Positions 24,577 to 48,948 of a DNA stretch of 64,000 nt are shown here, piece by piece. Source of the DNA: an uncultured Bdellovibrio sp. (GTDB taxonomy: Bacteria; Bdellovibrionota; Bdellovibrionia; Bdellovibrionales; Bdellovibrionaceae). Positions within the stretch are counted from its first letter, which is position 1; the number at the start of each line of letters is the position of its first letter. Under the pieces are notes generated by a model. That model ran no database searches. It was not told the origin of the DNA and worked only from the letters and a program-made list of their open reading frames with translations. The stretch covers positions 115,576 through 179,575 of the forward strand of contig CBIHNI010000009.1 in NCBI GenBank assembly GCA_966211455.1. Reading direction: 5' to 3'. Both the position numbers and the translations under genes were made by a program.

Positions 24577-26217
24577 TTACGGTAACTCATAAATGCTAGC
24601 CAGGCCGTCGACAGTTCGCACTTTCTGTGCCTTCATCTCGGTCATTTTTTTGGTCAGCCAATCTCGCTCGATGGCGGCGATGGCCTTGCTCCACGCGTCC
24701 AGATCTTGCAAAGGATCTGTTTCTGGCTGCAGCAAAGCCCTTCGGATTTTGCGCAGTTCTACTTTCACATCTATTCCGTAAATCTTTTGGAATGCAGCGA
24801 CCACGTCGCCGCCGCGAATGTCATTGAACTTGTCGGTGATCAGAACATACTTGATCGAATTCTTCTCTAGGCACTTTTCAAATTCTTCCTGACAGAAGTT
24901 TGAAAAAGTCACAGCTTGATCCCCTAGGTACATATGTCCACTTAAAGCATAGGCCAAAGAACCACCCCACATCGCTTTGCGATTTTCGTATGCGAATGGG
25001 ACACCCAGTTTGTTTGTTGGACCGACCAAATCCTTCGTTTGCAAGTAGATCTGTCGATGCCACGAAATCTCGATGTCTTGTTTGGAAACCTTATATGTGG
25101 TCCAGATAGAATATCCCATCAGCGAAGCCATTGCGATCATGGAAAGCTTGCGATGCCAGCTTTGCAAAAACAAAAAGAATCCACAAAATGTAACCAAAAT
25201 GCCGATTGGCAACATGGGGGTGAATAGTCTGGGCAGATCCACTGGCCCAACTAAGAAACTGTAAGATAAAAGATAAAACAAAGGGATAAAAGCACAAGCC
25301 AACAGAATAGGGACTTGCGCCGGTGTTTCTATCTGACGGGCCTTTAAATATCCCGCTAATAAAACAAAAGCGACAAAGCCAAGGCTGAGATAAAATCCGT
25401 AAATATCCATGAAAAAGGACTGCGCAATCGTAAATACCGTGAACAAGCTGGCGCTGCTTTGTCTGGTCACCGAATGATGAATTTCAGCCATGTTTTTAAA
25501 CACCGCGGATGGACCAAAAATCAAAAGACCTAAGATAAAAGGTGCACAAAAAGAAAGACCAGCAATCACGCTTTTTTTCAAAAAGGTTTTGCGAAATTTA
25601 GCATTCCATTCTCTTTCGGCTCGGAAAACCACCCACCCAATGACGCATCCAATGAACAACGTCAGAAGCCCCATGTCTTCATGAGTATTAGCCGCCAACC
25701 CCAGCCACAGGCTCATCAAAGCTAGATACTTATCACTGCCATAGGTCTTCATGCCCAAAGACTGAAGATAGCAAATAAAGAAAATCAAAAAGCCCAGTAA
25801 AAAAGTCGTGCTGTAGATATGGCAAAGCTCTTGCCCGCTTTGTAGCACCATTGGCAGCCACGAAGCATAGAAAAGGCCGACGGCAAAACCAAATGCGCGA
25901 GATCCAGTTATCCGAACGGCCAGTAGAAACAGGATGACGGCATTTAAGCTATCAAATGTCGAAACCATGAATTTGATCGAATGATCTTGATAATGGAACA
26001 TCAAGAGTCCGATTCCGTTGATCAAATAAGCCAAAGGACGATAGAAAAGCAGGTAGGGATCCCCAGTGATCAGACGTTCCGAAAAAACAAAGTACTGAAA
26101 GGTATCATGTCCAGAAACTCCCAGATCAAAAATTCGTCGGTACCTGAGATATCCAGCAATCGCAAAAACAATCAGCGCTAAGAGGCCTACAATCCAATGG
26201 TTCTTATTGATTTTCAT
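24577..26217 (-). CDS. GT-C-like (ArnT/PMT_2-like) polytopic glycosyltransferase candidate with C-terminal periplasmic domain, paralogue A
   Basis: 546 aa from the ATG at 26217 (GAGGTG Shine-Dalgarno; the upstream stop is at 26240). About 11 TM segments. The first-loop motif SGHDTFQYF is shared with ORF 37398-39032, followed by a soluble C-terminal ~160 aa. Confidence 0.5.
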   Translation of the reverse strand: MKINKNHWIVGLLALIVFAIAGYLRYRRIFDLGVSGHDTFQYFVFSERLITGDPYLLFYRPLAYLINGIGLLMFHYQDHSIKFMVSTFDSLNAVILFLLAVRITGSRAFGFAVGLFYASWLPMVLQSGQELCHIYSTTFLLGFLIFFICYLQSLGMKTYGSDKYLALMSLWLGLAANTHEDMGLLTLFIGCVIGWVVFRAEREWNAKFRKTFLKKSVIAGLSFCAPFILGLLIFGPSAVFKNMAEIHHSVTRQSSASLFTVFTIAQSFFMDIYGFYLSLGFVAFVLLAGYLKARQIETPAQVPILLACAFIPLFYLLSYSFLVGPVDLPRLFTPMLPIGILVTFCGFFLFLQSWHRKLSMIAMASLMGYSIWTTYKVSKQDIEISWHRQIYLQTKDLVGPTNKLGVPFAYENRKAMWGGSLAYALSGHMYLGDQAVTFSNFCQEEFEKCLEKNSIKYVLITDKFNDIRGGDVVAAFQKIYGIDVKVELRKIRRALLQPETDPLQDLDAWSKAIAAIERDWLTKKMTEMKAQKVRTVDGLASIYELP

Positions 26218-26239
26218 ATCACCTCGGCAAATCACGCTA

Positions 26240-27538
26240 TCATGCTGTAGATGGCTCCACAAGAGCCCGACGAAAATACTGAAAGCTTAATGCCGAACTT
26301 GCAACAGCAAGCGCGGTGGCAATCGCCGATCCATAAACTCCCCACACCGGAACAAAAGCTAAATTCAAAATAATATTCATCACCGCGATCGACATCATAA
26401 ACAAGGTCTGCCGCACTGGCTGCCCTGCCATGACGAAAATCGTATGAAATGGATAAAATCCAGAAGCCAACCAGATTCCGGTCATCAAAATCCCGAAGAT
26501 CTTCCAGCTTTGATGAAATTCAGTCGAAACATGCATCAACTGCAATCCATACGGAAAAAGAAAAATGGCCAGCGGCACCAATATAATCCCTGCGCCATAT
26601 ACCTTCTGAGCCGTTTGTCGAACCGTTTGGTTAAATTCCAGAAATTTTCTTTCGTGCAGCAATCGACCCAAGCGCGGATTGTAAATGTTCTGCAAAACCA
26701 CCAAAAACTGACTGAGCCCTTCGACAAATAACGCGGCAAAACTGTAGATTCCCGTTTCGCGATCCGAAAGGAAAAAACCGATAATCAAAACATCAACTCG
26801 AGAATTCAACTCAAGCAAAGCGCCTGAAATCAAACTTTGAAAGCCAAAGATTAAATACTTTTTATGTTCGGACCACTGAAGACGATACCGGCTTAGCTTT
26901 CGCCATAAAAAACCAAAGCGAAACAGAAAGACCAGAAACAAAAAACCTTCAGAGCCCGTAAAGACAAATGGCAACAGGCTACCGTCCCAACGAAAAACGA
27001 AAAATCCAATCAGTAACAGCAAAACACCAGCATAGCGCAGGCACTGGTAAAAAGCGTAATCTTTCATCCGATTTTGGCCGTTGATCACACCGAGAAAGAA
27101 CTTATTAAAGCTAAAAAACAGCAAACCCGGCGCAATCACCCAACAACCAATGGAAACCGGATCGCTTCCCAGAATCTGGGCCCACAGGTCAGCAGTTAAA
27201 ATAAGAACCATTGTCCAAAAGATCGCAATACCCAAAAGCATTTTAAAATGAACAATAAGAACCGAATGAAGGTCCTCGGATAGATCGGTATTTTGTTTTC
27301 CCACAGAATGCAAAATAGAAAGCTGCAAACCACCCGAGCTCAGCTGGGAAAAAATAATGTAAATCGCGATGACTTGATTCAGAATTCCCAAAGTGGCCGC
27401 ATCATAGAAATACCCCACCCCTACATTCAGAGCGACGCCAGAAATCCCAAGCAAACCAATGCTTAGAAAATTCAAAATGACATCACGTTTTCCCGAGGTA
27501 TTCGACATTGCAAAACCAGCTTTATTTCGAAAACTCAA
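26240..27538 (-). CDS. Wzx-type (MOP superfamily) polysaccharide flippase, copy 2
   Basis: 432 aa and polytopic throughout, with a Polysacc_synt-like layout. The TTG start at 27538 is preceded by GAGGGG 5 nt upstream; ATG at 27508 is an alternative. Confidence 0.78.
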   Translation of the reverse strand: MSFRNKAGFAMSNTSGKRDVILNFLSIGLLGISGVALNVGVGYFYDAATLGILNQVIAIYIIFSQLSSGGLQLSILHSVGKQNTDLSEDLHSVLIVHFKMLLGIAIFWTMVLILTADLWAQILGSDPVSIGCWVIAPGLLFFSFNKFFLGVINGQNRMKDYAFYQCLRYAGVLLLLIGFFVFRWDGSLLPFVFTGSEGFLFLVFLFRFGFLWRKLSRYRLQWSEHKKYLIFGFQSLISGALLELNSRVDVLIIGFFLSDRETGIYSFAALFVEGLSQFLVVLQNIYNPRLGRLLHERKFLEFNQTVRQTAQKVYGAGIILVPLAIFLFPYGLQLMHVSTEFHQSWKIFGILMTGIWLASGFYPFHTIFVMAGQPVRQTLFMMSIAVMNIILNLAFVPVWGVYGSAIATALAVASSALSFQYFRRALVEPSTA

Positions 27539-33772: not shown

Positions 33773-35329
33773 TTAGGGAGCAATTGGCTTTTCCGCTAAA
33801 ATGGGCCTGCTCGTAGACATCAAAAGCTTTTCATACAATTTAAAAAGAACATTTCTTTCCTGCTCCCAGCAAAGTTCTTCTTGAGCCCGCTGGATGTTCG
33901 CATTTAATTCACGACGGAAGGTTTGATCCACCGTTAGCTTTTGCAGATTTGCCACAAGTGAATCGTGATTATAATTGTCAAATAAAGCACCACAGCCGTA
34001 CTTGCGAATATGGTTTTCCAGCTCAGGAAGACGACAAGCCAAAATTGGTAGACCTGCCTGGATACTTTCAAAGAATTTATTTGGCAACGTATAGAAGTAA
34101 CTCAAACAAATCGGATCCATTGAAACAACCGAAAAATCAGCGGATGAAGCCCAGCTTGAAACCTCTCCGGTTGGCACCGGTCCGTAATGAAAGACTCGAT
34201 TCTTCAGATTCAACAGATCGACTTTTTTCCAAAACTCGATCGCGAAATTTGTGTCGAAATATCCAAGCAAAACAAATTTCAAATCTGGATGCACATGCGG
34301 CAAAGCCTCTAGAATCCCCATCACACCACGATTGTAGGTGATCTTTCCTACGTACAGACCAATGACATCCTTATCAGTCAGTCCCAACTTTTGGCGTAAA
34401 TCAAATTTGCCTTTTTCAAAATGGACACGATACGGGGTGTTTCTAATCACAACTGGATCGGCGACACCATGAAACTGTCCTAAATGCTGAGCGATTTTCT
34501 CACAAACCGTAATGGCTCCGGCTGCCTTTTTGATAGATTCACGCTCATAGTGGATCTCCCAGATTTTTTCCTCATAGGTAATCGGAGTCTTGCCACGATT
34601 GCGATCAACCCACAGCTCATGGGAATCGTAAATATAAGGAATTTTCAGCTTTTCATGAATCATTCGCGCCGCAGGCAAGGTGTTAAAATCATGCGCGTGC
34701 ACAATCTCCGGCGAAAAACCCTGTGCCAATGCCAATGCTTGACGGCCGAAGCGAAAGTAACTTTCCTGACGAGATTTAAATTCCGCTGACAAAATCGCTC
34801 GTAAAATATTTGAAACCCGCAGCGAATCCAGATGGCGAATTTTATCCAAAAGGAAAATAACCTGAAAGACCTTCTTTTGCCACCAGCGCAACTTGCTTAG
34901 AATTTTAAATGTCCATGGCGTTTTTGTTAATGCATTCACCACTGGTTTACGAATAGTTTTTGGAATCAAAAGCCAAGGCGAAGTGACATACATTAGCTTG
35001 TCTGTCGTAAAGAATGGTTTTTTCGATTCGACATAAATCGAAGGTGTCCCTTTCCCAGAGCCAGCCTTTGCGCCACCGCTTCCATTTTTAATACCAAACA
35101 AAGTTCCCGTCGGGTGTCCCAACTGTGGATCTGCACTGACACGCCAAATGTCGTAACCCAAGGCATGTCGCTCTTTAAGCACTTGCTCCGGCTGCCCAAT
35201 GGCGCCTAAGCAAACTAAAGCTAACTGCGCCCCTTGATCCAGTAAGGCTTTCGCACAGCGCTCCACGCGCGAGTCATGCTCGTGCGTGTTCAAAACCAAC
35301 ATCATGATTTTTTTTCCGGCGATCGACAT
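33773..35329 (-). CDS. GT4-family (GT-B) glycosyltransferase with long N-terminal domain
   Basis: 518 aa. IVHAHDFNTLPAARM and the C-terminal LPNKFFESIQAGLPILACRLPEL. An A8 tract covers codons 5-8, and the downstream ATG-ATG (MMLVLN...) is an alternative start. Confidence 0.8.
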   Translation of the reverse strand: MSIAGKKIMMLVLNTHEHDSRVERCAKALLDQGAQLALVCLGAIGQPEQVLKERHALGYDIWRVSADPQLGHPTGTLFGIKNGSGGAKAGSGKGTPSIYVESKKPFFTTDKLMYVTSPWLLIPKTIRKPVVNALTKTPWTFKILSKLRWWQKKVFQVIFLLDKIRHLDSLRVSNILRAILSAEFKSRQESYFRFGRQALALAQGFSPEIVHAHDFNTLPAARMIHEKLKIPYIYDSHELWVDRNRGKTPITYEEKIWEIHYERESIKKAAGAITVCEKIAQHLGQFHGVADPVVIRNTPYRVHFEKGKFDLRQKLGLTDKDVIGLYVGKITYNRGVMGILEALPHVHPDLKFVLLGYFDTNFAIEFWKKVDLLNLKNRVFHYGPVPTGEVSSWASSADFSVVSMDPICLSYFYTLPNKFFESIQAGLPILACRLPELENHIRKYGCGALFDNYNHDSLVANLQKLTVDQTFRRELNANIQRAQEELCWEQERNVLFKLYEKLLMSTSRPILAEKPIAP

Positions 35330-35330
35330 C

Positions 35331-37373
35331 CTAGGCTCTCACAATTCCACGATCATACATCTGCGGAATTTCGTGGATGCGATGCAAAGCTCTTTCCAAG
35401 TCAAAGCCCACTACCTGCGAATACCAGTGCAAGGTCTCCCAACGTGGTTGGTTGTCTCGTTCCGTAAGACGCAAAGCCTCTTCTCGGGTCAAATGGCCTT
35501 CGCGAATTTGGTTCGAACGGAAGGTGTCGTTTTCAGTGAAACCTGCAACCACGTAATAAATGTAATTGTAGAAGGCTGCCGTTCCGTCACCAATACGCCA
35601 TGTCGATTTGGTATCGTTAGAAACTTCCCAGTCATATTCCTTCAACAAAGTGCCGACAACCTCGTCTTCTTTCCATTCAATGTAACGGAACAAAGGAACG
35701 AATTCTTGCGGAACAAAGTAATACGACCAAAAACCAACAAATGTGTCCCACAAAGAGCGATTCAAATATCCAGGATTGGTCAAAAATTCTTTGGCGTAAA
35801 ATCCCGCCAGCTTAGCACGATTGAGCATTGCCAATTGCTCTCCGAATTTATCCGAATCTGCACCTGGCTTCCAGAACTGAATGCCGGTCATTTCTTCTTT
35901 AAACTGGGTTTTTTCCAGCAAATTAAAGCTGAAGATTTCCCCCTTGATGCCCATACGCATGCGAATTTCGCGCGCCAAAGACATAAACTCCTTATCTCCC
36001 GCCATAAACAAAGGGATCATCCCTAAGTGTGGCTTCTTTAGCCAAGCTTCAATATTCTTGCGAACATTTTCACGTTTCCACAAGATGTCGGCCGAAATAA
36101 TGATGTTTTCGACCCCTAGCTGACTACACACACGCGAAATATTTCTTCGCGCCAGATCCGTCACCAAGCCCCAGTCATAAGTATAAGTCACAGGCTTCAG
36201 GCCCAGCTCTTTCACCGCATAGTGAAGGCCGTAACAAGAATCACGCCCCCCCGACAAAGCCAGAACGACGCCCGGCTTGCCATTGGCTTCACGAAACTTT
36301 TCGACATCCTTATCCAGCTGGTCACGACCAATGTAGACGATTTTTTTATAGTTACTGCAGAAGTTGCAGACACCCTGTTCATTGAACTCAATGAATGGAA
36401 CGGTTTCCGGCATGATACACTGGGTGCAACGACGGATCTTATTGATCTTCATTTCGGCTGCACGGAATTTTTTTAAAACTTCAGGAAGCTCCAACTTGCT
36501 TGGAAGAGCAAACAGCGAGCGAGCATTGTTATTGCCCGCCACGTACTTCACTTCCACATTTCGATGCATCAGCGCTTTATCGGCCGATGATTTTTGTAAA
36601 CCTTGATCTTTCAAAGAAAAGTTTCTCTGCACGCCCTTAGTGAAATCAAAGAACCAGCCTTCGCCAGCTTCTACTGGAACGATGGCATATTTGCTTTCTT
36701 CCAAACCACTTTTTTGCAAAAACGAATGCAAAGTCAAAAATTCAGAAGCAAAAAACCAAGGGCCTTTTCCATCCGTCGGTTTCAAAAGATACAACGATCC
36801 ATTGTTTGTCGCCAAAATCAGTTGGTTTGTCTGGGTTAAAGCCAAAGCGATCGAAGCAGTTCCACGGATTTCCGCAAAAGCTTTCTTTGCGGCTGACAAA
36901 GGATCCAATCCTTCTTCCAGGAACATGCCGATCAAAGCCACAATCGCTTCAGAATCGACATCGGTACGTTTTTGCAATTGCGGGAATTTTTTCCAGATCT
37001 CTTCGACATTCACAACGATACCATTGTGAACGATCACATTCGAATGCGACATCACGGGCTGGTTGTTGTCTTTTTCCGATTGCGAACCATTGGTCACCAA
37101 ACGGGTATGACCGAACGCCGCACCCGAAAAGCTTTCACGATTCAAAAGAAACGAATCGCGAAAATTTCGAAATTCGTCAGATTTAATCATGTCTGATGCT
37201 GGCAACGGAGACTTGATCAACCCCATCGCTTCGCTTCCGTTTCGCATCAGCGTCCAACCGGAAGCTTCTTTACCCCGAGACTCGGATAATTTAAAAAGCT
37301 GTTTCGACCAATTTTGAACCTGCTCTGATTTGATTTCTTCCGCAGCCGAGATCACTCCAAAAATTCCACACAT
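35331..37373 (-). CDS. Fusion protein: class-II (Ntn) glutamine amidotransferase domain + WbuX/PseA/WbpG-type PP-loop N-acetyl-sugar amidotransferase domain
   Basis: 680 aa. N-terminal MCGIFGVIS (Cys2 nucleophile), GHTRLVTNG and DSEAIV. The central Cys-rich motif CTQCIMPETVPFIEFNEQGVCNFC is followed by the PP-loop LALSGGRDSCYGLHY. Confidence 0.75.
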   Translation of the reverse strand: MCGIFGVISAAEEIKSEQVQNWSKQLFKLSESRGKEASGWTLMRNGSEAMGLIKSPLPASDMIKSDEFRNFRDSFLLNRESFSGAAFGHTRLVTNGSQSEKDNNQPVMSHSNVIVHNGIVVNVEEIWKKFPQLQKRTDVDSEAIVALIGMFLEEGLDPLSAAKKAFAEIRGTASIALALTQTNQLILATNNGSLYLLKPTDGKGPWFFASEFLTLHSFLQKSGLEESKYAIVPVEAGEGWFFDFTKGVQRNFSLKDQGLQKSSADKALMHRNVEVKYVAGNNNARSLFALPSKLELPEVLKKFRAAEMKINKIRRCTQCIMPETVPFIEFNEQGVCNFCSNYKKIVYIGRDQLDKDVEKFREANGKPGVVLALSGGRDSCYGLHYAVKELGLKPVTYTYDWGLVTDLARRNISRVCSQLGVENIIISADILWKRENVRKNIEAWLKKPHLGMIPLFMAGDKEFMSLAREIRMRMGIKGEIFSFNLLEKTQFKEEMTGIQFWKPGADSDKFGEQLAMLNRAKLAGFYAKEFLTNPGYLNRSLWDTFVGFWSYYFVPQEFVPLFRYIEWKEDEVVGTLLKEYDWEVSNDTKSTWRIGDGTAAFYNYIYYVVAGFTENDTFRSNQIREGHLTREEALRLTERDNQPRWETLHWYSQVVGFDLERALHRIHEIPQMYDRGIVRA

Positions 37374-37397: not shown

Positions 37398-39032
37398 TCA
37401 CGGTAAAAAATAAAGCGTTCCTACATCCGAACTCAACGGCAACCTGACACCGCCTCGTGATTGCACAAAGGCTTCGATTTTCCGCACATCTTCTTCCACC
37501 TTGTAGGTTTCTGGATTCATTCCTACACAAGCCCCAAGTTGAGCGTACTGAGGTTCCTTTTTCCGCAAAATGCGTGTGTCCCATTCGCTTGAATTCGAAA
37601 GAAAAATGTACCTGATTCCACTATTTCTGACAAACTCATCCAGCGTTAATCCTGAACTAGTGCATTCAATCAAATAAACGGCATTTTTCCCAAAATAAGG
37701 GGTCGCATTGAACTGCCTTCTCATCTCATAGTGAATATAAGGGGCAATCAAAATTTTTTGCTCTGCATTCACTTGGGTGCCCAATTGCTCAAACACAGGT
37801 CGGACATTTCCTTTTTCGCGACCTTCTGAAATCCTTTGGAACTGCAGATGCGAAGGCCAAAACGACAGATAGGCCATCCAGACAGCAAATCCCGTCATCA
37901 AAACTGGCGACAAGAAGCGCAAATGAGGCTGGACCAGAACCTGCTCCAGAGCCTGAAAACAGGTCAGCAGAACAAAAACATTAAACGGGAGGAAAAGGCG
38001 ACTATAATACACATCCGGAAAAGCCATCGTGAAGAAAAATAAAGTAAAAACATAGACCGCGAGGGGAAGGAGATCCAAACCACTCAGCCATGGTTTGCCC
38101 CGCAGTCTCCGCAAAATAAAAGGTGCTGCAAAAACCAAAACCGCCAACAACCAGATCCAAGATAATGCCGGATTCAGTGACTCTTGTGGACCTTTCCACA
38201 GGTAAGCGCGAAATAGTTCAAGCGCGTCAGTTCCCGCCCCGCCATGGATATGAGATTCCGAAAAAAGCGAGTCGAAAACTTTGCCAAAACCAATCACAAA
38301 GCCCCAAAGAACATGATTCAAGAAAAAACCTGCTGTGAAAATCACACACATTCGAAGATTGTCGCGGTCGAAGATAGCCCGAAAAGATCGCGACGGCCAA
38401 AAATGCAGAATTGAAAAGATTAAAATCGCTGCCGGCCCCAGAAATGAAAGGCTTCCGTGGCAGGTTGCAGCAGCACCGGCCAAAATTCCGGATAGAAAAA
38501 TCAGCCTCCAAGCCTTCTTGTCAGTTTTCAAAACTGCGTCCAAAGCGAGCTTAAAGACCGCCAAAAAAAATAATGCAAACAACGTCGAAAGCGTGTGTGG
38601 TAATTCCGAATTTGACATCACAAACACCGATGGAGATGCCATGTACACCAAGGCCAGCAGAAGCGCGCTTAAGCGATGACGCAAGAACATCAACCCCAGA
38701 ACAATCACCAACAGCGTATTCAGAGTTTCGACAAAACCCATCATCATCCGTAACGAATAATCCCGACCTTCGAAAAGAGATATTCCCAAAGCACCTAGAG
38801 CATAATGAAGTGGACGAAAAAATTGGTAGAACTCGGTCAGTATATCATTCAAGACAAATTGGCCTTGATGCCACAACGTTGCGATCTCAAAATACTGAAA
38901 AGTATCAGAACCGCGAATGCCATTCTGGGTAACTCCACGCATGCGAAAGTAAGCATCAGTCACAATCATCAAAGTCGCGACAATCCAGAAAAAGAAAGTC
39001 GCGAATCGTCCTTCGCCTTTGGCTGAGTTCAT
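37398..39032 (-). CDS. GT-C-like (ArnT/PMT_2-like) polytopic glycosyltransferase candidate, paralogue B
   Basis: 544 aa with about 11 TM segments. The first-loop motif RGSDTFQYF resembles that of ORF 24577-26217. Soluble C-terminal domain. It sits 3 nt downstream of the GtrB/ArnC-like GT2. Confidence 0.5.
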   Translation of the reverse strand: MNSAKGEGRFATFFFWIVATLMIVTDAYFRMRGVTQNGIRGSDTFQYFEIATLWHQGQFVLNDILTEFYQFFRPLHYALGALGISLFEGRDYSLRMMMGFVETLNTLLVIVLGLMFLRHRLSALLLALVYMASPSVFVMSNSELPHTLSTLFALFFLAVFKLALDAVLKTDKKAWRLIFLSGILAGAAATCHGSLSFLGPAAILIFSILHFWPSRSFRAIFDRDNLRMCVIFTAGFFLNHVLWGFVIGFGKVFDSLFSESHIHGGAGTDALELFRAYLWKGPQESLNPALSWIWLLAVLVFAAPFILRRLRGKPWLSGLDLLPLAVYVFTLFFFTMAFPDVYYSRLFLPFNVFVLLTCFQALEQVLVQPHLRFLSPVLMTGFAVWMAYLSFWPSHLQFQRISEGREKGNVRPVFEQLGTQVNAEQKILIAPYIHYEMRRQFNATPYFGKNAVYLIECTSSGLTLDEFVRNSGIRYIFLSNSSEWDTRILRKKEPQYAQLGACVGMNPETYKVEEDVRKIEAFVQSRGGVRLPLSSDVGTLYFLP

Positions 39033-39035
39033 GAT

Positions 39036-39998
39036 TTAGATGACTTTCTGGAGCGGCGTGCCAGGTCTTGAAGCGATGTCGTACTGAACCGCCGAGATCA
39101 AAAGTTGAAATCCTAAAACCAAAAGAATCGTCACCAAAGAAATCGTACCTGGCTCCGTCATAATCCCGGCCTGCATTCCGCTAATCCATTTCCACAAACC
39201 ATAAAAAAAGCCAGCACCGAACATCAACAGCCCCATGCACAGCTGCACTGAGCCAACGTTGAAATCATGCACGAAATAATCATAAACGATCCGCTTATAG
39301 AAACGGCTCAGATGCCCTTTCAAAAACGGACCGATGATTTTGGAAATGGAAAGATTGCTTTCTTCGTCGCCGTAAAAAGCAATCATCGGCACATCAACGA
39401 CCACGGCATTTATCAAATGCAGTCGGAACAGCATATCCGATTCAAAGAAATATCGGTTGGCGATTTTTTCGGATTCCAACATCAGAAAAACTTGTGCATG
39501 AATGGCCACGAAACCATTGGTAGGATCCATGATCTGCCAATAGCCCGAAGATAACTTTGTTAAAAAAGAAAGGACCGAATTCCCAAACAATCGCATGCCC
39601 GGCATTTGCGCCAACGATCGAGGATTTGAAAAACGATTTCCCTTCGAATAATCACAAAGCTCATCGACGATAGGTCGAATCAACTTTTGAATCAGAGCCG
39701 GATCCATTTGGCCATCACCATCCAATTTAACCAAAATATCGTATCCATCTTGAGCGGCTTTTTTCATGCCTGCTTTGGTCGCGGATCCAACACCGCCGTT
39801 GATCTCTTGAAAAACCACTTCGACCCGTGGATCTTGGCAATTTTCTTTAACGAACTGACCCGATTTATCAGGGCAACAATCATCAACGACATACACCTTG
39901 GCCACGTCGGGGCCAATCTTTGCCAGGACCTGCATGATGTGTCGTTTCACCTTATAACTGGGAATAACAACGGCGACTGTTTTTTCTTTTTTTTGCAC
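39036..39998 (-). CDS. GT2 polyprenyl-phosphate glycosyltransferase (GtrB/ArnC-like) with C-terminal TM helices
   Basis: 320 aa. VAVVIPSYKV, VYVVDDCCPDKSG, LDGDGQMDP, and two C-terminal hydrophobic helices. GTG start with AGGA 8 nt upstream. Confidence 0.8.
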   Translation of the reverse strand: MQKKEKTVAVVIPSYKVKRHIMQVLAKIGPDVAKVYVVDDCCPDKSGQFVKENCQDPRVEVVFQEINGGVGSATKAGMKKAAQDGYDILVKLDGDGQMDPALIQKLIRPIVDELCDYSKGNRFSNPRSLAQMPGMRLFGNSVLSFLTKLSSGYWQIMDPTNGFVAIHAQVFLMLESEKIANRYFFESDMLFRLHLINAVVVDVPMIAFYGDEESNLSISKIIGPFLKGHLSRFYKRIVYDYFVHDFNVGSVQLCMGLLMFGAGFFYGLWKWISGMQAGIMTEPGTISLVTILLVLGFQLLISAVQYDIASRPGTPLQKVI

Positions 39999-42244: not shown

Positions 42245-42398
42245 GCTTCAAACAAACAGGATTCTCAAAGTTTGTCAAAATCCCAAGGAGAGGCTCTTTT
42301 GCAACACTCAAACACCCTCTCTGAAGTGAGACCGAATCTTGCTGACGCCGAGTATAAATGATTTCCAAGCGACCATATTCTCGAGAGATTGTCCCCCC

Positions 42399-42989
42399 AT
42401 GATCGCAAAAACAGCCATTGTCTATCCCGAGGTTAAACTCGGAAAAAATGCTCACATCGAAGACTACTGCATCGTCGGCGCTCCCCTGCAAGACGGAAGC
42501 TGTCCCGAAACTTGGATCGGCGATAACTGCGTGATTCGCTCACATACCGTCATTTATGCGGGCAACAAGATCGGCAATAACTTTAAGGCCGGCAACAAAT
42601 CCAACATTCGCGAACTCAACGAAATTGGCAACAATGTCAGTATCGGCACTCTAAGCGTCGTCGAGCATCATGTTGTGCTAGAGGACAATGTGCGTATTCA
42701 CACCTCTGCATTTATTCCCGAATATTCGATTTTAAAAAAAGGCTGCTGGATCGGCCCGCATGTGGTTTTAACCAATGCCCGCTATCCCAATCGCCCCGAT
42801 ACCAAACACAATTTGCAGGGCGTGACCGTACAAGCTGGCGCTGTGATCGGAGCCAACTCAACCCTTTCACCGGGAATTGAAATCGGCGAATCAGCTTTGG
42901 TTGGCTCGGGCTCGAATGTTGTCAGAAACGTCAGAAACCATTCCACTTGCGTCGGGAATCCGGCCAAAGAACGAGAGAAGAAAGCATGA
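42399..42989 (+). CDS. Left-handed beta-helix (hexapeptide repeat) N-acetyltransferase, WbpD-like
   Basis: 196 aa from the ATG at 42399. Tandem hexapeptide repeats: IGDNCVIRSHTVIYAGNKIGNNFKAGNKSNIRELNEIGNNVSIG. Confidence 0.85.
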   Translation: MIAKTAIVYPEVKLGKNAHIEDYCIVGAPLQDGSCPETWIGDNCVIRSHTVIYAGNKIGNNFKAGNKSNIRELNEIGNNVSIGTLSVVEHHVVLEDNVRIHTSAFIPEYSILKKGCWIGPHVVLTNARYPNRPDTKHNLQGVTVQAGAVIGANSTLSPGIEIGESALVGSGSNVVRNVRNHSTCVGNPAKEREKKA

Positions 42990-44122
42990 ACATCCCTTTC
43001 ATGGATCTGCATCGCCAATATCAATCGATCAAACCCGAAATCGATCAGGCTTTCGAGCGCACCATGAGCCGTTGCAGCTTTATTGGCGGATCTGACAAAG
43101 ACCTTTTTGAAAAAGAATTTGCCGAATCTATTGGTGCTAAATTTTGTATTGGCGTTGGCAACGGAACTGATTCTTTAATGCTGATCATGAAAGCGATGGG
43201 CTTGGGCGCTGGTGACGAAGTCGTTGTTCCGGCAAATACTTTCATCGCGACATCCGAAATGGTCACAGCATGCGGCGCCAAACCGATCTTCTGTGATATC
43301 GAAGAGTCAACCAATTTGATGGACCTGGATCATATCGAGCGCATCTTGTTGCAAAAGGCCTCCGGCGGGAAAAATCCTGTCAAAGCCATCTTACCGGTGC
43401 ACTTGTATGGCCGAATCATGGACATGAAAAAAGTGATGGCACTTGCCGAGAAGTACAATCTTTTTGTCATTGAAGATTGTGCTCAAGCCCACCGTGCCGT
43501 GATCGATGGAAAAATGGCTGGAACCTGGGGACACGCAGGCAGCTTCAGCTTTTACCCTGGAAAAAATCTGGGCGCCTTCGGTGATGCCGGCGCAATCGTC
43601 ACAAACGATGCGGCTTTGGCAGAAAGGATGCGCAAATTGGCCAATCACGGCCGTATTGGAAAATACGATCACGACATGGAAGGCTACAATTCGCGTCTTG
43701 ATGGCATGCAGGCTGCTTTTCTGCGTGTGAAGCTGCCGCACCTTCCTGAATGGACACGCAAACGCCAGGTTTTGGCGGAGCGCTATTACAGGCTTCTAAA
43801 GGACATCCCAAATGTAAAGACTTTGGCCCAGCCGTCACAAGCGACCGAGCACGTCTACCATCTTTTTGTTGTGCGTGTTCAAAACCGCTCTGCGATTCAA
43901 TCTTTCATGAAAGAAAAGAAAGGAATCGAGACCGGAGTTCACTATCCGACATCTTTACCATTTCTTAAGGCATATAGTTTCATGGGACATACTCCGAAGG
44001 ATTTTCCTGTATCTTATCAATTACAGTCGGAAATTATGAGCCTTCCCCTATTTCCAGAGCTGACTTTTGAGGAACAAGACTATATTGTCTCTGCTTTACG
44101 TGAAGCAGCGGCATTATCTTGA
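42986..44122 (+). CDS. DegT-family PLP aminotransferase, WbpE-like (UDP-2-acetamido-2-deoxy-3-oxo-glucuronate aminotransferase type)
   Basis: 378 aa. ATGA overlap with the acetyltransferase. MNIPFMDLHRQY, GNGTDSLMLIMKAMGLGAGDEVVVPANTFIATSE, SFYPGKNLGAFGDAGAIVTND. Confidence 0.88.
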   Translation: MNIPFMDLHRQYQSIKPEIDQAFERTMSRCSFIGGSDKDLFEKEFAESIGAKFCIGVGNGTDSLMLIMKAMGLGAGDEVVVPANTFIATSEMVTACGAKPIFCDIEESTNLMDLDHIERILLQKASGGKNPVKAILPVHLYGRIMDMKKVMALAEKYNLFVIEDCAQAHRAVIDGKMAGTWGHAGSFSFYPGKNLGAFGDAGAIVTNDAALAERMRKLANHGRIGKYDHDMEGYNSRLDGMQAAFLRVKLPHLPEWTRKRQVLAERYYRLLKDIPNVKTLAQPSQATEHVYHLFVVRVQNRSAIQSFMKEKKGIETGVHYPTSLPFLKAYSFMGHTPKDFPVSYQLQSEIMSLPLFPELTFEEQDYIVSALREAAALS

Positions 44123-44144
44123 TGCTTGTTTAAGGGGGGACTCT

Positions 44145-45209
44145 TTGATTCGATTTGCTCTTTTGGGTTGCGGACGCATCACATCTAAACACGCGGATCC
44201 TATTTTCAAAGGTCAAGTTGCCGACGCAGAACTTGCCGCCGTTTGTGACATCAACAAAGAAGCAGCGGATCGATTGGCAGCCAAGTACAATGTTCCGGCA
44301 TTTTACTCTTTGGATGAGCTTCTTCATCAAACTAAAGTGCAATTCGACGTTGTCTCCGTTCTGACCCCAAGTGGATTGCACCCCGAGCATTCCATTCAGG
44401 CTCTGTCGAAAGGCAAGCATGTCGTCGTCGAAAAACCGATGGCTCTGCGTCTGGAAGATGGCGAAGAGATGATTAAGACCGCAAAAAAACATGAACGCAT
44501 GCTGTTTGTGGTAAAGCAAAACCGATTCAATCCTGCCGTTCAGCAGTTGAAGACGGCGATCGCCGAAGGTCGCTTTGGCAAAATTTCTTTGGCGACGGTT
44601 CGCGTTCGTTGGTGCCGCCCTCAAGATTATTACAATCAATCTCCTTGGCGAGGAACTTGGGCTCTGGATGGTGGTGTATTTTCCAACCAAGCCAGCCACC
44701 ATGTCGATTTATTGCAATGGTTGGCGGGCGAAGTTGAAAGCGTTATCGCACGTGGTTCACAGGCCATGGCAAAAATCCAAGCCGAAGATACCGGTGTCGT
44801 TTTGGTGAAATTTAAAAATGGCGCGCTTGGTGTAATTGAAGCGACAACGGCCACTCGGCCCTTCGACCTTGAAGGTTCAGTTTCAATCTTAGGTGAAAAA
44901 GGGACTGTGGAAATCGCTGGCAAAGCGGTCAACGAAGTTCGTCACTGGCAATTCATCGATGCAAATGCCAACGATAAAACTGCGGCCACCGACTCGAATA
45001 CGGCCCCGCCAGATGTCTACGGTTTTGGACACGTTCATTATCTGAATAACGTCGTTCAGACATTGCTGGGTAAAGAAAAAGCTTTGGTAGATGGAGCCGA
45101 AGGCTTCTCGTGCTTAAAGCTTCTCAATGCAATTTATGAATCAATGGCTAGTGGCAAGGAAGTCTTCTTGTCTGAATCATTTAGCCAAAGCAAATTGGGA
45201 AAACGATAA
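44145..45209 (+). CDS. Gfo/Idh/MocA-family NAD-dependent oxidoreductase, WbpB-like
   Basis: 354 aa from the TTG at 44145, with AAGGGGGGA 5 nt upstream. IRFALLGCGRITSKH, HVVVEKPMAL. Confidence 0.85.
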   Translation: MIRFALLGCGRITSKHADPIFKGQVADAELAAVCDINKEAADRLAAKYNVPAFYSLDELLHQTKVQFDVVSVLTPSGLHPEHSIQALSKGKHVVVEKPMALRLEDGEEMIKTAKKHERMLFVVKQNRFNPAVQQLKTAIAEGRFGKISLATVRVRWCRPQDYYNQSPWRGTWALDGGVFSNQASHHVDLLQWLAGEVESVIARGSQAMAKIQAEDTGVVLVKFKNGALGVIEATTATRPFDLEGSVSILGEKGTVEIAGKAVNEVRHWQFIDANANDKTAATDSNTAPPDVYGFGHVHYLNNVVQTLLGKEKALVDGAEGFSCLKLLNAIYESMASGKEVFLSESFSQSKLGKR

Positions 45210-45249: not shown

Positions 45250-46209
45250 TTATTTTTTAATTCTTCGCCCAACGACATAAGGCTTGAAAGGATTTGCCCG
45301 AACAATCAGTTCAGCGACTAATCCAATTAAACCGATCTGCAGTCCCATTAGGAACAAGAATACGGCAATCGTTAATAACGGTCGGTTATTGAGCTGCAAA
45401 CCAAAAGGCAGCTCCAATAAATAAAAAATATGAAACAAAAGAAGATATAGACCTAAAGCCATACCGAGTCCCAAAAGCGGCACAGCAAAAGCTGCAAAAA
45501 AATAGAGCGGGTTTGGTGCAAAACGAGTCACCAACATCGTCGTCAGTAAATCAAAAGCCCCATAAAAATAACGGGCCAGCCCGTATTTGCTTGTCCCAAA
45601 TTGGCGACTGAAATGACGAACCGGAAGCTCCGTTACTTTTGCTCCCTTCCAAAATAATAAGACCGGAATATACCGATGCTGATTGCCGCGTAGATTCAGC
45701 TCCTTTAGACACCAGCTTCGATATAATTTCAGTCCACAGTTAAAATCATGAAGCTGCAATCCAGAAGCAAAGCGAACGACCGTATTAAAAAACTTTGAAG
45801 CCCAGCGCTTTTCGGTGGGATCATTACGATCTTTCTTCCATCCAGAAACAAGGTCGTATCCCTCAAGAGCTTTGTTGATCAATCTCGGAATCTCTTCCGG
45901 ATCATCCTGCAGATCAGAATCCATTGTCACAATAAACTCGTATTTGGCGTGTTCAAATCCGGCCTGCAAGGCAGCTGCTTTTCCAAAATTCATTCTCAAA
46001 AAAAGGGCCGATGTCTGAGGTTCAGTTTGAGCAAGTTGCTCGATGATCTGCGGACTTTGATCGCTCGAACCATCATCCACAAAAATAAGCTCCCAATCCT
46101 TAATTTGTGGATTGCGCTGAATCATGGAAACAATTTTTTGATGCAATAAGTTTAAGCTTTCTGCCTCATTAAAAACAGGAATAACGACACTTAAAGTAAT
46201 TGGATTCAT
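45250..46209 (-). CDS. GT2 polyprenyl-phosphate glycosyltransferase (ArnC/Dpm1-like) with C-terminal TM helices
   Basis: 319 aa from the ATG at 46209, 1 nt after the asnB stop. LSVVIPVFNEAESL, IFVDDGSSDQS, VTMDSDLQDDPEEIPRL, and two C-terminal TM helices. Confidence 0.85.
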   Translation of the reverse strand: MNPITLSVVIPVFNEAESLNLLHQKIVSMIQRNPQIKDWELIFVDDGSSDQSPQIIEQLAQTEPQTSALFLRMNFGKAAALQAGFEHAKYEFIVTMDSDLQDDPEEIPRLINKALEGYDLVSGWKKDRNDPTEKRWASKFFNTVVRFASGLQLHDFNCGLKLYRSWCLKELNLRGNQHRYIPVLLFWKGAKVTELPVRHFSRQFGTSKYGLARYFYGAFDLLTTMLVTRFAPNPLYFFAAFAVPLLGLGMALGLYLLLFHIFYLLELPFGLQLNNRPLLTIAVFLFLMGLQIGLIGLVAELIVRANPFKPYVVGRRIKK

Positions 46210-46210
46210 A

Positions 46211-48091
46211 CTAATAGCCGTACCTCTGAAGAAGCCATTTTTGCAAGACATAACTTGTCCAGAGCGGTTTGAAAAGGCTGTCCTGGTGATCCAGATGCCG
46301 TTGGAACATGCTCAGTATAAATTCTCGATTGAAAATATCAGTTCGGCGGCAATTATCTTCAGAGAAGGCATCCAAAAATTCGCTTTTCAATGGGCCACTA
46401 AGCAACAAGCCAACGGGCGATGTAAAACCCTTTTTCTTTTGCCCCAAAAGATGTGGAGGAAGGCTGTCGCGTCCAATCTCTTTTAAAATTCTTTTTGTCT
46501 TCAAGTTCGAAAACTTCTCCGCTTCTGGTAAAGCCTGCGCCAATTGAAAGAGGTCCAAATCTAGAAAAGGAGCCCGCAATTCAATACCTAATTTCATTGA
46601 AGCGCGGTCCGAATTTCGAAGTACATATTCTGGTAAAAATGTTCTTTGGTAAAGATGGGAAAAAGCAGTCAAAGAGTTAGAAGATGCTTCTTCGTCAAAA
46701 ATCTGACGATACAACTTTTTGATTTCTGAAACCGCGTCTTCGGCCTGTCCGGGATGCCTCAATCCTGAGAATAGTTCCTGAGTATGAAAAGACCCCGCCC
46801 ATATCAAATTGCGATACATCGGATCCTCAGCAAGCCCTAATGCGAACCGTTTGATCTTTAGTCCGATTGGCATGTAAGAGTGGGACGGCTTAATTTGCTG
46901 AGCGATAAAAGTGAAAAAATTTTTTTTGAGCACCCTAGGCAGCCACTCGACTTTACCAGCTATCCATGCAGCTTTAAAAATTTCATATCCGAAAAAGACT
47001 TCGTCGCCACCATCACCAGTAAGAGCAACTTTATGAGACTTAGCTAACTTCTGGCAAATATGATACTTTGGTAAAAAACCAGGATCTGCAATAGGTTCGT
47101 CCATTTGCGGAAGAACTTCCTGCGCGATCCTTGCCATGTCTTTTAGACTGAGCTCTATTTCTGTGTGATCAGTCTTAAAAAAATTTGCCGTTTTGGCTGC
47201 CAATGTACTTTCGTCAAAGCTCGCATCTATATTGCGAATCGTAAATGTTGAGATTTTTTGCGAATCTAAAATTTTCTTTGCCTGCGACAGGACCAACGAA
47301 GAATCAATCCCGCCGCTAAGAAGAACGGCAACGGGCACATCAGCGCGAAGAGATCTTCTTACGGCGCTTTCCAAACCCTGTTCAACCTGCTCTTGCGAAG
47401 GAATTGCGCCGGCCTTGCATGACAAGTCAAAGTACCGCCACACTTGAGCTCGCTTCCCGTCCCAAATTAGAGACTGACCAGGAAGAAGCTTCTGAAAATT
47501 CTTTTCGAAAGTTTCGCTACCGGCCCACGATTCCGTCACCAAAAATCGGGCAGCCAGAGAAATGTTCACCTCACCATTCGGTATCAGGATTCTCAAAGCT
47601 GATAGCTCGGACGCAAAAGCAAAGTTTTGACCTTCTGAATAGTAATAAAGTGGCTTTTGACCGAAAGGATCACGCGCTAGAAAAGCAACTTCATTTTTAG
47701 AATCGAAAATGGCAAAAGCAAACATGCCATTCATTTTTTTTACGCATTCCGAGCCCCACTCTTGATAAGCCCGTATCACAACTTCAGTATCAGATTGGGT
47801 GAAGAATCGATGCCCCCTCGTCTCAAGCTCAGCCCTTATTTCGATGTAATTATAAATCTCGCCGTTGTAGGTAAGCATCTGAAGATGCTCTTTATCTATG
47901 AACGGTTGCTTCCCCCCCTCCAGATCTATAATGGACAGTCTGACATGCCCAAAGCTAGCAGGACCTGAACTATGTATGCCTGTTCCATCCGGGCCTCGAT
48001 GCCGAATAGCACTCATTGCTTTCTCAACATTCGCTTCTCTTTCAGATTTCGGAATTTGCGCTGAAATAATGCCTAGGATTCCGCACATGCA
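46211..48091 (-). CDS. asnB: Asparagine synthetase B family, glutamine-hydrolysing (WbpS-like glycan amidotransferase candidate)
   Basis: 626 aa. Class-II GATases need Cys2, so the start must be MCGILGIISA at 48091. PP-loop VLLSGGIDSSLVL. Confidence 0.9.
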   Translation of the reverse strand, partial: CMCGILGIISAQIPKSEREANVEKAMSAIRHRGPDGTGIHSSGPASFGHVRLSIIDLEGGKQPFIDKEHLQMLTYNGEIYNYIEIRAELETRGHRFFTQSDTEVVIRAYQEWGSECVKKMNGMFAFAIFDSKNEVAFLARDPFGQKPLYYYSEGQNFAFASELSALRILIPNGEVNISLAARFLVTESWAGSETFEKNFQKLLPGQSLIWDGKRAQVWRYFDLSCKAGAIPSQEQVEQGLESAVRRSLRADVPVAVLLSGGIDSSLVLSQAKKILDSQKISTFTIRNIDASFDESTLAAKTANFFKTDHTEIELSLKDMARIAQEVLPQMDEPIADPGFLPKYHICQKLAKSHKVALTGDGGDEVFFGYEIFKAAWIAGKVEWLPRVLKKNFFTFIAQQIKPSHSYMPIGLKIKRFALGLAEDPMYRNLIWAGSFHTQELFSGLRHPGQAEDAVSEIKKLYRQIFDEEASSNSLTAFSHLYQRTFLPEYVLRNSDRASMKLGIELRAPFLDLDLFQLAQALPEAEKFSNLKTKRILKEIGRDSLPPHLLGQKKKGFTSPVGLLLSGPLKSEFLDAFSEDNCRRTDIFNREFILSMFQRHLDHQDSLFKPLWTSYVLQKWLLQRYGY

Positions 48092-48948
48092 GTGTCCTTC
48101 GCTTGAAAACAAGTGGCGTGCAAGCCCTTCTCAAGACTTGTCATATGAAAACCTAAATCCGCCTGAATCTCGGCGCTATCCCAAGGGGGGTGCGCATGCA
48201 TAAATTTAAACTGCTGAAGAGGAAAGTTCGAAGTTTTTACAAATTTTGAGATAACATGTGCTGCTAATTTAATAAGTGGCAGCGGTATCGGAATGATCCA
48301 TGTGTGACTTTGTATTAAGTCTTTAATTTTATGAGCTAAATCAATTGTTCGGATCGGCTCGGGTCCACCCATGACCCAAACCTTCTTTTTCCATTTCTGC
48401 TCGGTAAGTAAACGAAGAACGGCGCGACCGACATCTTCTACATACAGGGGCTGTATATAAATATTTGCATCATAAGGCACAGGTGTAACCGGTGACTTGC
48501 GAATCACATTCAAAAGGCTGATCAAATTCTTTGAATCACCTGGTCCATAGATAAGACTGGGTCTTAATATTGCCCAATTTTGCAAATAGCTTTGAATCAG
48601 TTCGTTATCTCCATCTTGTTTGGTTTGACCGTATGGTCCCAAGCGATGAACTGCAGAAACTGATGAGATGTGAATCCAGCGAATATTCGGCTTATTCTTA
48701 AAAAGTTGGACCACTTCTCGAACCGAATTCGTATTGGCTTCTTTCAAAACAGGTTCAGGTCCATTAATCACTCCTGAACAGAAAACGATAGCATCCAGCT
48801 CAAGGCTCAGCTCTCGCAGCTTGCATATAGATTCTGCTTTAACAGTTTCACGTAAAGACAGCCGAAAAACTTGATGAGACTCTTTTTCAATCAGTTTAGA
48901 AAGATGCCGCCCCAGAAAACCATAAGCGCCTACGACTGCAACCTTCAT
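48073..48948 (-). CDS. NAD-dependent epimerase/dehydratase family (extended SDR)
   Basis: 291 aa. KVAVVGAYGFLGRHL, PYGQTKQDG (YxxxK). The ATG at 48948 follows the radical-SAM stop. Confidence 0.8.
   Translation of the reverse strand: MKVAVVGAYGFLGRHLSKLIEKESHQVFRLSLRETVKAESICKLRELSLELDAIVFCSGVINGPEPVLKEANTNSVREVVQLFKNKPNIRWIHISSVSAVHRLGPYGQTKQDGDNELIQSYLQNWAILRPSLIYGPGDSKNLISLLNVIRKSPVTPVPYDANIYIQPLYVEDVGRAVLRLLTEQKWKKKVWVMGGPEPIRTIDLAHKIKDLIQSHTWIIPIPLPLIKLAAHVISKFVKTSNFPLQQFKFMHAHPPWDSAEIQADLGFHMTSLEKGLHATCFQAKDTACAES

Follow-up and report, generated by a model that had tools for sequence, protein, structure and literature searches.

The 64,000-nucleotide stretch of an uncultured Bdellovibrio sp. 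genome that was analysed here, called the window below, carries on its minus strand a complete open reading frame (ORF) of 680 amino acids (35331..37373 including the stop codon) in which a class-II glutaminase is fused to a synthetase that resembles the N-acetyl sugar amidotransferases (NASATs). We are confident that this fusion gene codes for a bifunctional glutamine-dependent PP-loop amidotransferase, and we consider it probable that the protein is a self-contained enzyme of this kind in surface-glycan biosynthesis, one whose product would be an acetamidino sugar. The case is built on the identities of the two domains, the conservation of their motifs, a predicted fold in which both domains form a rigid whole, a single origin of the fusion followed by its spread, and the mutual exclusion of the fusion and the HisH/HisF paralogues WbuY and WbuZ. 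What we infer from the families involved is that the glutaminase is active, that ammonia is channelled, that a substrate is adenylated, that the product is an amidine and which sugar is acted on.

Translation of 35331-37373 is stop-free over 680 codons and begins MCGIFGVIS, and a Shine-Dalgarno-like sequence, GAAGAAGGTG, lies 7 nt 5' of the ATG. Residues 1-255 (36609..37373) are a class-II (N-terminal nucleophile, Ntn) glutaminase most like the N-terminal domain of GlmS, as seen with Pfam, in alignment with GlmS and with Foldseek. Pfam matched GATase_6 (46.9 bits, cut-off 27) and GATase_7 (44 bits, cut-off 25) at residues 85-215, and in a Foldseek search of the PDB the top matches of the N-terminal domain were GlmS/GFAT (E 6e-15), so that GlmS/GFAT is the best match in both sequence and fold. 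The key glutaminase residues are Cys2 (codon 37368-37370), which directly follows the initiator Met in MCGIFG, R33-G34, R91, N117-G118 and D140. R91, N117-G118 and D140 align with R73, N98-G99 and D123 of GlmS (PDB 1XFF), its glutamine-binding and oxyanion-hole residues, and Cys1 and R26-G27 of GlmS are likewise conserved in the fusion protein. Among 87 aligned homologues from many phyla (42-53% identity) C2, R33, G34, R91, N117 and G118 are invariant; D140 is kept in >=90% of the 87 and does not vary in a 28-sequence alignment. The fusion protein differs from GlmS/GFAT in that it has no SIS isomerase domain and its glutaminase is partnered by a PP-loop synthetase. A preliminary description of this DNA had called the domain PurF/AsnB-type. 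It was right about a class-II glutaminase with its catalytic residues kept, but both sequence and fold are nearer to GlmS than to AsnB.

The two domains are joined by a linker, residues 256-312 (36438..36608), which is variable in length and sequence, has a helix at residues 297-310 and was delimited from the alignment and from the predicted local distance difference test (pLDDT) of the model described below; it is the most variable region of the 28-sequence alignment A1, with many insertions and deletions. Residues 313-680 (35334..36437) form the NASAT-like synthetase domain, which consists of a zinc ribbon, then a Rossmann-like PP-loop core and then a helical C-terminal part. The NCBIfam model TIGR03573 (WbuX) matched residues 314-648 with an E of 5e-36 over profile positions 2-325 of 344, and a sequence profile built from the family found the NASAT structure PDB 8WEX (E 7e-16) and also GlmS, while Pfam gave nothing significant in the C-terminal 380 residues. 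The features that define NASATs are a tetracysteine motif, CXXCXn[GN]XCXXC, and an SGGXDS PP-loop (PMC10607449). In LpNASAT (PDB 8WEX), the subject of the only structural paper, the tetracysteine binds zinc and the protein has a PP-loop and a Rossmann-like fold (PMC10607449). In the fusion protein the Cys4 zinc-ribbon motif occupies residues 313-342 (36348..36437) in the form CxxC-x16-CxxC, which fits the NASAT tetracysteine; its cysteines are C316, C319, C336 and C339, a Gly (G334) stands two residues ahead of the third of these, and residues 316-339 read CTQCIMPETVPFIEFNEQGVCNFC. The PP-loop SGGRDS, an ATP pyrophosphatase signature, is at residues 374-379 (36237..36254) within LALSGGRDSCYGLHY, which is residues 371-385; both of these motifs had been quoted in the preliminary description. 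The four ribbon cysteines and SGGRDS are invariant in the 87 fused sequences, and C316, C319, G334, C336 and C339 are conserved across the fused, canonical and short clades that are distinguished below. The fused proteins and the canonical NASATs have 26 conserved positions in common, which include the ribbon, the PP-loop, N411, E487, Y564, W567, Y604, R624 and R630.

The structure prediction that the preliminary description had recommended gave one packed two-domain body. The AlphaFold2 model of the fusion protein, built on the 87-sequence alignment, has a mean pLDDT of 93.1 and a predicted template modelling score (pTM) of 0.93, and its lowest pLDDT blocks (71-85) are only in the variable linker at residues ~256-296; the prediction is thus of two domains that pack rigidly together. 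Foldseek matched the C-terminal domain of the model to 8WEX with a probability of 1.00, an E of 6e-12 and a target-normalised template modelling (TM) score of 0.60-0.61 over ~390 columns at 18% identity, and the whole-chain superposition on AsnB (1CT9) was poor (TM 0.28/0.37).

The relationship of the fused proteins to other NASATs was examined by searching 401 genomes of the window's phylum with TIGR03573, and the matches fell into clearly separate modes. Stand-alone NASAT genes of 370-460 amino acids, scoring 210-396 bits and so above the cut-off, were found in 82 of the 401 genomes, whereas long frames of 586-699 amino acids scored 100-153 bits, and every long frame that was fetched starts MCGI or MCGV, the Ntn signature. 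There is in addition a short stand-alone NASAT-like clade of 333-395 amino acids that scores 150-175 bits, under the cut-off; it is monophyletic (support 100) and its genes sometimes occur as tandem pairs (e.g. L112-L118 in G115, G360, G231, G153, G208, G240 and G246). In a maximum likelihood tree of 77 NASAT-like domains (IQ-TREE, LG+C20, quick search) all 40 fused domains, from many phyla and from the window's own, form one clan with a Shimodaira-Hasegawa-like approximate likelihood ratio support of 100. Since all fused NASAT-like domains form one clan, the fusion arose once. The clan lies outside the main canonical NASAT clade (support 99); its pairing with a sister is weak (support 35) and carries a long-branch warning, but the clan itself needs a single change of state. 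The fused proteins are thus an old and distinct family, sister to the canonical NASATs, and not recent fusions of ordinary wbuX genes. The label WbuX/PseA/WbpG-type, given in the preliminary description, therefore holds for the ribbon, the PP-loop and the TIGR03573 match but not for membership of the canonical clade. Since the C-terminal domain belongs to a deeply separated sister clan that scores below the cut-off, its substrate and its acetamidino product are matters that we infer rather than observe.

The canonical NASATs that work with WbuY/WbuZ are represented by WbuX of E. coli O145, WbpG of P. aeruginosa O5, PseA of C. jejuni, MMP1081 of M. maripaludis and LpNASAT (8WEX). We know of no NASAT that has been reconstituted in vitro, and to our knowledge the source of their ammonia is a hypothesis drawn from gene linkage and one pull-down. 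In that pull-down WbpG of P. aeruginosa bound HisF2, in support of an older proposal by which HisH2/HisF2 supply it with ammonia (PMC11445079). How these genes are arranged in the family of the window's organism is seen in a relative (G131), where wbuX (394 amino acids), wbuY (204 amino acids) and wbuZ (259 amino acids) are followed by fnlA-like genes. That no HisH/HisF homologue is present in the 64-kb window had already been remarked, and the absence extends to the whole genome (3.76 Mb, 26 contigs, 99.95% complete): there was no match to the HisF-like WbuZ model TIGR03572, which does match in 14 of 14 control genomes, and tblastn with the WbuY and WbuZ of the relative found nothing in it. 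HisH/HisF genes hidden elsewhere in the genome are thus ruled out, and the fusion gene is the only TIGR03573-like gene that the genome has.

The same exclusion is seen across the phylum. With a threshold of E<=1e-50, a WbuZ-like gene was found in 70 of the 82 genomes with a canonical NASAT but in only 1 of the 14 that have the fused form alone (Fisher p 1.6e-8, a value that, like the other co-occurrence statistics given here, is not corrected for phylogeny), and that one genome also has a high-scoring NASAT fragment, below the cut-off, at a contig end. WbuZ lies within 4 genes of 17 of 19 canonical loci and of none of 14 fused loci (p 1.5e-7), and WbuY within 4 genes of 15 of the 19 and again of none of the 14. 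In other phyla WbuY/WbuZ were found within 10 kb of 4 of 80 fused loci, each time with a canonical NASAT of their own (212-298 bits) adjoining, so that WbuY/WbuZ serving the fused genes in these genomes was rejected. These results support the replacement of the HisH/HisF ammonia supply by the class-II glutaminase in the fused clan, and the proposal of the preliminary description that the glutaminase had been swapped for one of another amidotransferase class is borne out by them. As a separate observation, the genome has neither a HisF-like nor a HisH-like gene, and since the complete lack of HisF/HisH fits histidine auxotrophy, the organism is most likely a histidine auxotroph.

The following mechanism is proposed. 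After removal of Met1, Cys2 would hydrolyse glutamine to glutamate and ammonia, with R91 and D140 holding the glutamine and N117-G118 serving as the oxyanion hole. The SGGRDS PP-loop would bind ATP and the NASAT-like domain would adenylate the carbonyl oxygen of the N-acetyl group of an amino sugar. Ammonia passed internally from the glutaminase would then displace AMP, converting the acetamido group (-NH-CO-CH3) to an acetamidino group (-NH-C(=NH)-CH3), and the product would be cationic at neutral pH. In this way the fused glutaminase would do the work of the separate HisH/HisF paralogues WbuY/WbuZ of the stand-alone NASATs. The reaction is the one presumed for canonical NASATs, an ATP-dependent conversion of acetamido to acetamidino with ammonia derived from glutamine, and the likeness extends to the Cys4 zinc ribbon followed by an SGGxDS PP-loop, the Rossmann-like AANH core, the helical C-terminal part, the 26 shared positions, the 8WEX fold (TM 0.60) and the location in surface-glycan loci. 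The ammonia supply differs, being a covalently fused class-II glutaminase in the one case and a non-covalent class-I HisH/HisF pair in the other; and the fused loci of the window's phylum, unlike the canonical ones, have no adjacent WbuY/WbuZ (0/14) and are more often accompanied by a GtrB-like family 2 glycosyltransferase (GT2). That an acetamidino group in a glycan can depend on a NASAT is known from the deletion of MMP1081, which removes this group (PMC2952790).

Several results weigh against carrying this mechanism over from the canonical enzymes. The TIGR03573 score of the fusion protein, 124.8 bits, is under the curated cut-off of 203.2 bits, and all 28 family members tested are under it as well (the best with an E of 2.3e-43), because of which the family has no consistent name. 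The stem of the fused clan is 2.14 substitutions per site from the canonical NASATs. There are ~60 clade-specific conserved positions in the fused clan at which the canonical enzymes differ, among them D400-W401-G402, R409-R410, K433, D460-K461, W592-R593-I594-G595-D596-G597-T598, E614, R619 and R644. The literature on NASATs, acetamidino sugars and WbpG/HisH/HisF yielded no paper on the fused form and no characterised member, and the lack of correction for phylogeny in the co-occurrence statistics belongs with these points. Because of the low score, the long stem and the clade-specific positions the acceptor, and conceivably the type of reaction, may differ.

The rival explanation that survives best is therefore one in which the architecture and the PP-loop mechanism are as proposed but the acceptor is not an N-acetyl group, so that the clan would have a new specificity within the NASAT superfamily. 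For example, the carboxylate of a uronic or nonulosonic acid might be turned into a carboxamide, or a formamido or other acyl-amido group might be converted. It is in keeping with this that the family is deeply diverged and below the cut-off, that its synthetase domain has many invariant residues of its own, and that PP-loop enzymes such as NadE and AsnB adenylate carboxylates. On the other hand, the only relatives that have been studied functionally, WbpG, WbuX, PseA and MMP1081, make amidines, and 26 core positions are held in common with the canonical NASATs. Furthermore, AsnB-type enzymes that form carboxamides are already near the fusion gene, at 46211-48112 in the window and as two genes beside the homologue of Solidesulfovibrio carbinolicus, and because of them a second carboxamide-forming enzyme would be redundant. 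We regard a different acceptor as unlikely, and amidination of an N-acetyl sugar as the better explanation.

That the protein is simply an ordinary asparagine synthetase B, GlmS or QueC has next to nothing to commend it beyond the names of its homologues in public records and the fact that the N-terminal domain matches the GlmS, AsnB and PurF models. Those NCBIfam matches are confined to the N-terminal ~245 residues and score far under the curated cut-offs (64.7 against 381; 41.6 against 267), the AsnB model TIGR01536 being limited to residues 2-218 (41.6 bits against 267.1). Asn_synthase (PF00733) had no match at E<=0.1 in the 680-amino-acid protein, whereas the AsnB-like gene at 46211-48112 of the same window, which served as a control, scored 253.6 bits on it. 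The QueC family was not among the NCBIfam matches at E<=0.1, and residues 300-680 have no Asn_synthase, SIS or QueC domain match in Pfam or NCBIfam. The profile searches thus rule out all three enzymes, the C-terminal domain matching WbuX and 8WEX instead, and the worry that this half might be an ordinary asparagine-synthetase domain can be set aside. The arrangement of an Ntn domain followed by a PP-loop domain does recall AsnB, and AsnB-like architecture with a non-AsnB synthetase, the phrase used in the preliminary description, is apt. AsnB and the AsnB-like sugar amidotransferases (PF00733 plus GATase_7) also have an N-terminal Ntn Cys glutaminase and a C-terminal AANH PP-loop ATP pyrophosphatase, and in them too ammonia derived from glutamine attacks an adenylated intermediate. 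The fusion protein differs in lacking a PF00733 match, in having a zinc ribbon that AsnB lacks, in its poor superposition on 1CT9, in a glutaminase that is nearer to GlmS by sequence and in its presumed acceptor, an amide carbonyl and not a carboxylate.

Equally improbable is that the ORF joins two genes by an error or that its glutaminase is a decayed, inactive remnant. No point in favour of this was found, and against it stand the occurrence of the same length and architecture in at least 586 species genomes and on complete plasmids of cultured strains, the conserved catalytic residues and the pTM of 0.93. An assembly or frameshift artefact is thereby ruled out, and a remnant is disfavoured by the six invariant glutaminase residues and the nearly invariant D140. 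Given how common full-length homologues are and how confident the two-domain model is, the fusion is genuine, and the one intact ORF reported before, with both of its domains now matched by profiles, was correctly read.

How widespread the fusion might be had been left as a question, and the answer is that it is old, very widespread and not peculiar to this genome. A word-indexed homologue search listed 120 clusters, and all 120 among the matches listed have 98-100% query coverage, 42-55% identity and lengths of 641-704 amino acids. With phmmer against 1.84 billion representatives, 505 clusters (50% identity) were found at E<=1e-30, and the best 150 of the 505 are almost all 620-690 amino acids long. 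The family-specific peptides PLFMAGDK and TWRIGDGT retrieve at least 586 species genomes. Taxa named among the 80 loci that were kept are Bdellovibrionales, Planctomycetota, Bacteroidetes, Anaerolineae, Patescibacteria and Saccharibacteria, Verrucomicrobia, Proteobacteria (Pseudomonadota), Omnitrophota, Nitrospinota, Ignavibacteriota, Myxococcales, Desulfobacteraceae, Deferribacterales, Aminicenantes and Zhuqueibacterota, and the isolate Bosea sp. WAO; the 120 clusters listed include one archaeal homologue, from Ca. Methanoperedens. The names of the clusters, where given, are hypothetical, GlmS, AsnB and 'predicted glutamine amidotransferase', and source records also use 'glutamine-fructose-6-phosphate transaminase', 'asparagine synthetase B' and '7-cyano-7-deazaguanine synthase' for homologues. 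The last of these is the RefSeq name of a full-length homologue on plasmid pDCAR1 of S. carbinolicus DSM 3852 (NZ_CP026539.1, 9001-10965), where it is a misannotation. The homologues of Agrobacterium sp. MA01 and RAC06, on complete plasmids of cultured strains, are called 'glucosamine 6-phosphate synthetase' or hypothetical. The fused proteins thus make up a large, widespread family, sister to the NASATs, for which there is neither an agreed name nor a characterised member. In a protein of 756 amino acids (P0270) a NASAT-like domain of the fused clan (52% identity) occupies residues 57-418, the N-terminal glutaminase is missing and ~340 extra residues are present at the C-terminal end; this may be another domain architecture or a gene-calling artefact.

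In the window four closely spaced genes on the minus strand form an operon, in the order GT2, polytopic protein, fusion and family 4 glycosyltransferase (GT4), with gaps of 3, 24 and 1 nt between stop and start codons. The first gene (39036..39998) codes for a 320-amino-acid GT2 with C-terminal transmembrane helices, recognised by Pfam Glycos_transf_2 and of the GtrB/ArnC/PpgS type of polyprenyl-phosphate glycosyltransferases; its best NCBIfam matches, AglJ (a dolichyl-phosphate transferase) and the polyprenyl-phospho-GalNAc synthase PpgS, are weak. The second (37398..39032) codes for a near-orphan polytopic membrane protein of 544 amino acids with at least 8 predicted transmembrane segments, which may be a GT-C-like transferase. 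Neither Pfam nor NCBIfam gives a match for it, database searches find the protein itself and otherwise a paralogue in the window and two marginal matches, and an AlphaFold2 model made from two sequences (pLDDT 40) is unusable. The paralogue, at 24577-26262 on the minus strand (561 amino acids, 25% identity, E 5e-16), likewise has no Pfam or NCBIfam match, and relatives of the pair are almost absent from 5.8 billion proteins and from the 401 genomes of the phylum. One of the two adjoins a MOP flippase gene and the other lies between the GtrB-like GT2 and the fusion gene. Downstream, the TAG stop codon of the fusion gene is followed after 1 nt by the ATG of a translationally coupled gene (33773..35329, minus strand) for a GT4 of 518 amino acids, identified by Pfam Glycos_transf_1 and Glyco_trans_4.

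The operon sits in 64 kb that make up a single large polysaccharide locus, and from this setting the product of the fusion enzyme would be a surface-glycan decoration. A hexapeptide N-acetyltransferase, a DegT/PseC-like aminotransferase and a GFO/UDP-GlcNAc 3-dehydrogenase-like oxidoreductase are encoded in a row at 42339-45209 on the plus strand, and it is plausible that this WbpD/WbpE/WbpB-like set would supply a sugar of the 3-acetamido (2,3-diacetamido) type, which is a candidate for amidination. On the minus strand, the true AsnB-type amidotransferase gene (46211-48112; PF00733, 253.6 bits) has directly downstream of it an ArnC-like polyprenyl-phosphate GT2 (45250-46251, 180 bits to the ArnC model), and the window also encodes a radical-SAM enzyme and MOP flippases. 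Two kinds of glutamine-dependent sugar amidotransferase and two GtrB/ArnC-like GT2s are thus encoded in the locus.

Over the window and the other fused loci together the context is polysaccharide biosynthesis throughout, with GT2, GT4, MOP flippases, DegT aminotransferases, hexapeptide acetyltransferases and WecB. The loci are generic polysaccharide loci, and a search of the conserved neighbours for a substrate found no single sugar pathway common to all fused loci. A GtrB-like GT2 of the same cluster with C-terminal transmembrane helices is within 4 genes of 32 of 74 fused loci and near 23 of the 45 that have full flanks; within the same distance there is a MOP flippase-like protein in 29 of the 74 and another protein with at least 7 transmembrane segments in 40 of them. 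Counted in the window's phylum, 6 of 14 fused genes but 1 of 19 canonical NASATs have the GT2 nearby (p 0.026), and on the S. carbinolicus plasmid a GT2 is upstream of the homologue and the two AsnB genes are downstream. This linkage to GT2 is real but partial; it speaks for a role in glycan decoration by way of a lipid carrier but does not prove it. One may tentatively suggest, with more doubt than confidence, that the fused clan is the tailoring enzyme of an undescribed lipid-carrier ('three-component') decoration cassette. The GtrB/ArnC/PpgS-like GT2 would put an N-acetyl amino sugar on undecaprenyl phosphate, the soluble fusion enzyme would turn its N-acetyl group into a cationic acetamidino group at the cytoplasmic face, or alternatively would act on the nucleotide sugar just ahead of loading, a MOP-type flippase would export the lipid-linked sugar and the polytopic GT-C-like protein would attach it to the surface glycan. 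If this is the case, the cassette would be a functional analogue of the addition of 4-amino-4-deoxy-L-arabinose by ArnC/ArnD/ArnT and would reduce the negative charge of the surface.

The swapping of glutaminase modules is itself a familiar theme among amidotransferases. The ammonia source varies by lineage in NadE, which occurs with or without a fused nitrilase-type glutaminase, and in GuaA, which has a fused or separate class-I glutamine amidotransferase, and the formylglycinamidine ribonucleotide synthetase PurL, which forms an amidine in a glutamine- and ATP-dependent reaction and is not a PP-loop enzyme, likewise has its glutaminase fused or separate. The fused clan is like these enzymes in that the synthetase keeps its chemistry and its glutaminase module can be exchanged, fused or split, and PurL is a chemical precedent for the conversion of an amide to an amidine; it differs from them in the family of the synthetase and in the substrate.

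Acetamidino sugars give the surface glycans of bacteria and archaea a positive charge and affect serotype, recognition by phages and antibodies, and motility. A fused sister clan that excludes HisH/HisF is independent 'Rosetta-stone' evidence that NASATs are glutamine-dependent amidotransferases, and an enzyme on a single polypeptide ought to be far simpler to produce and assay than a complex of three proteins. The frequent linkage to a polyprenyl-phosphate GT2 hints at an undescribed lipid-carrier route of decoration. With ~500 clusters at 50% identity in many phyla and some archaea that are unnamed or misnamed, a curated family model would correct thousands of annotations.

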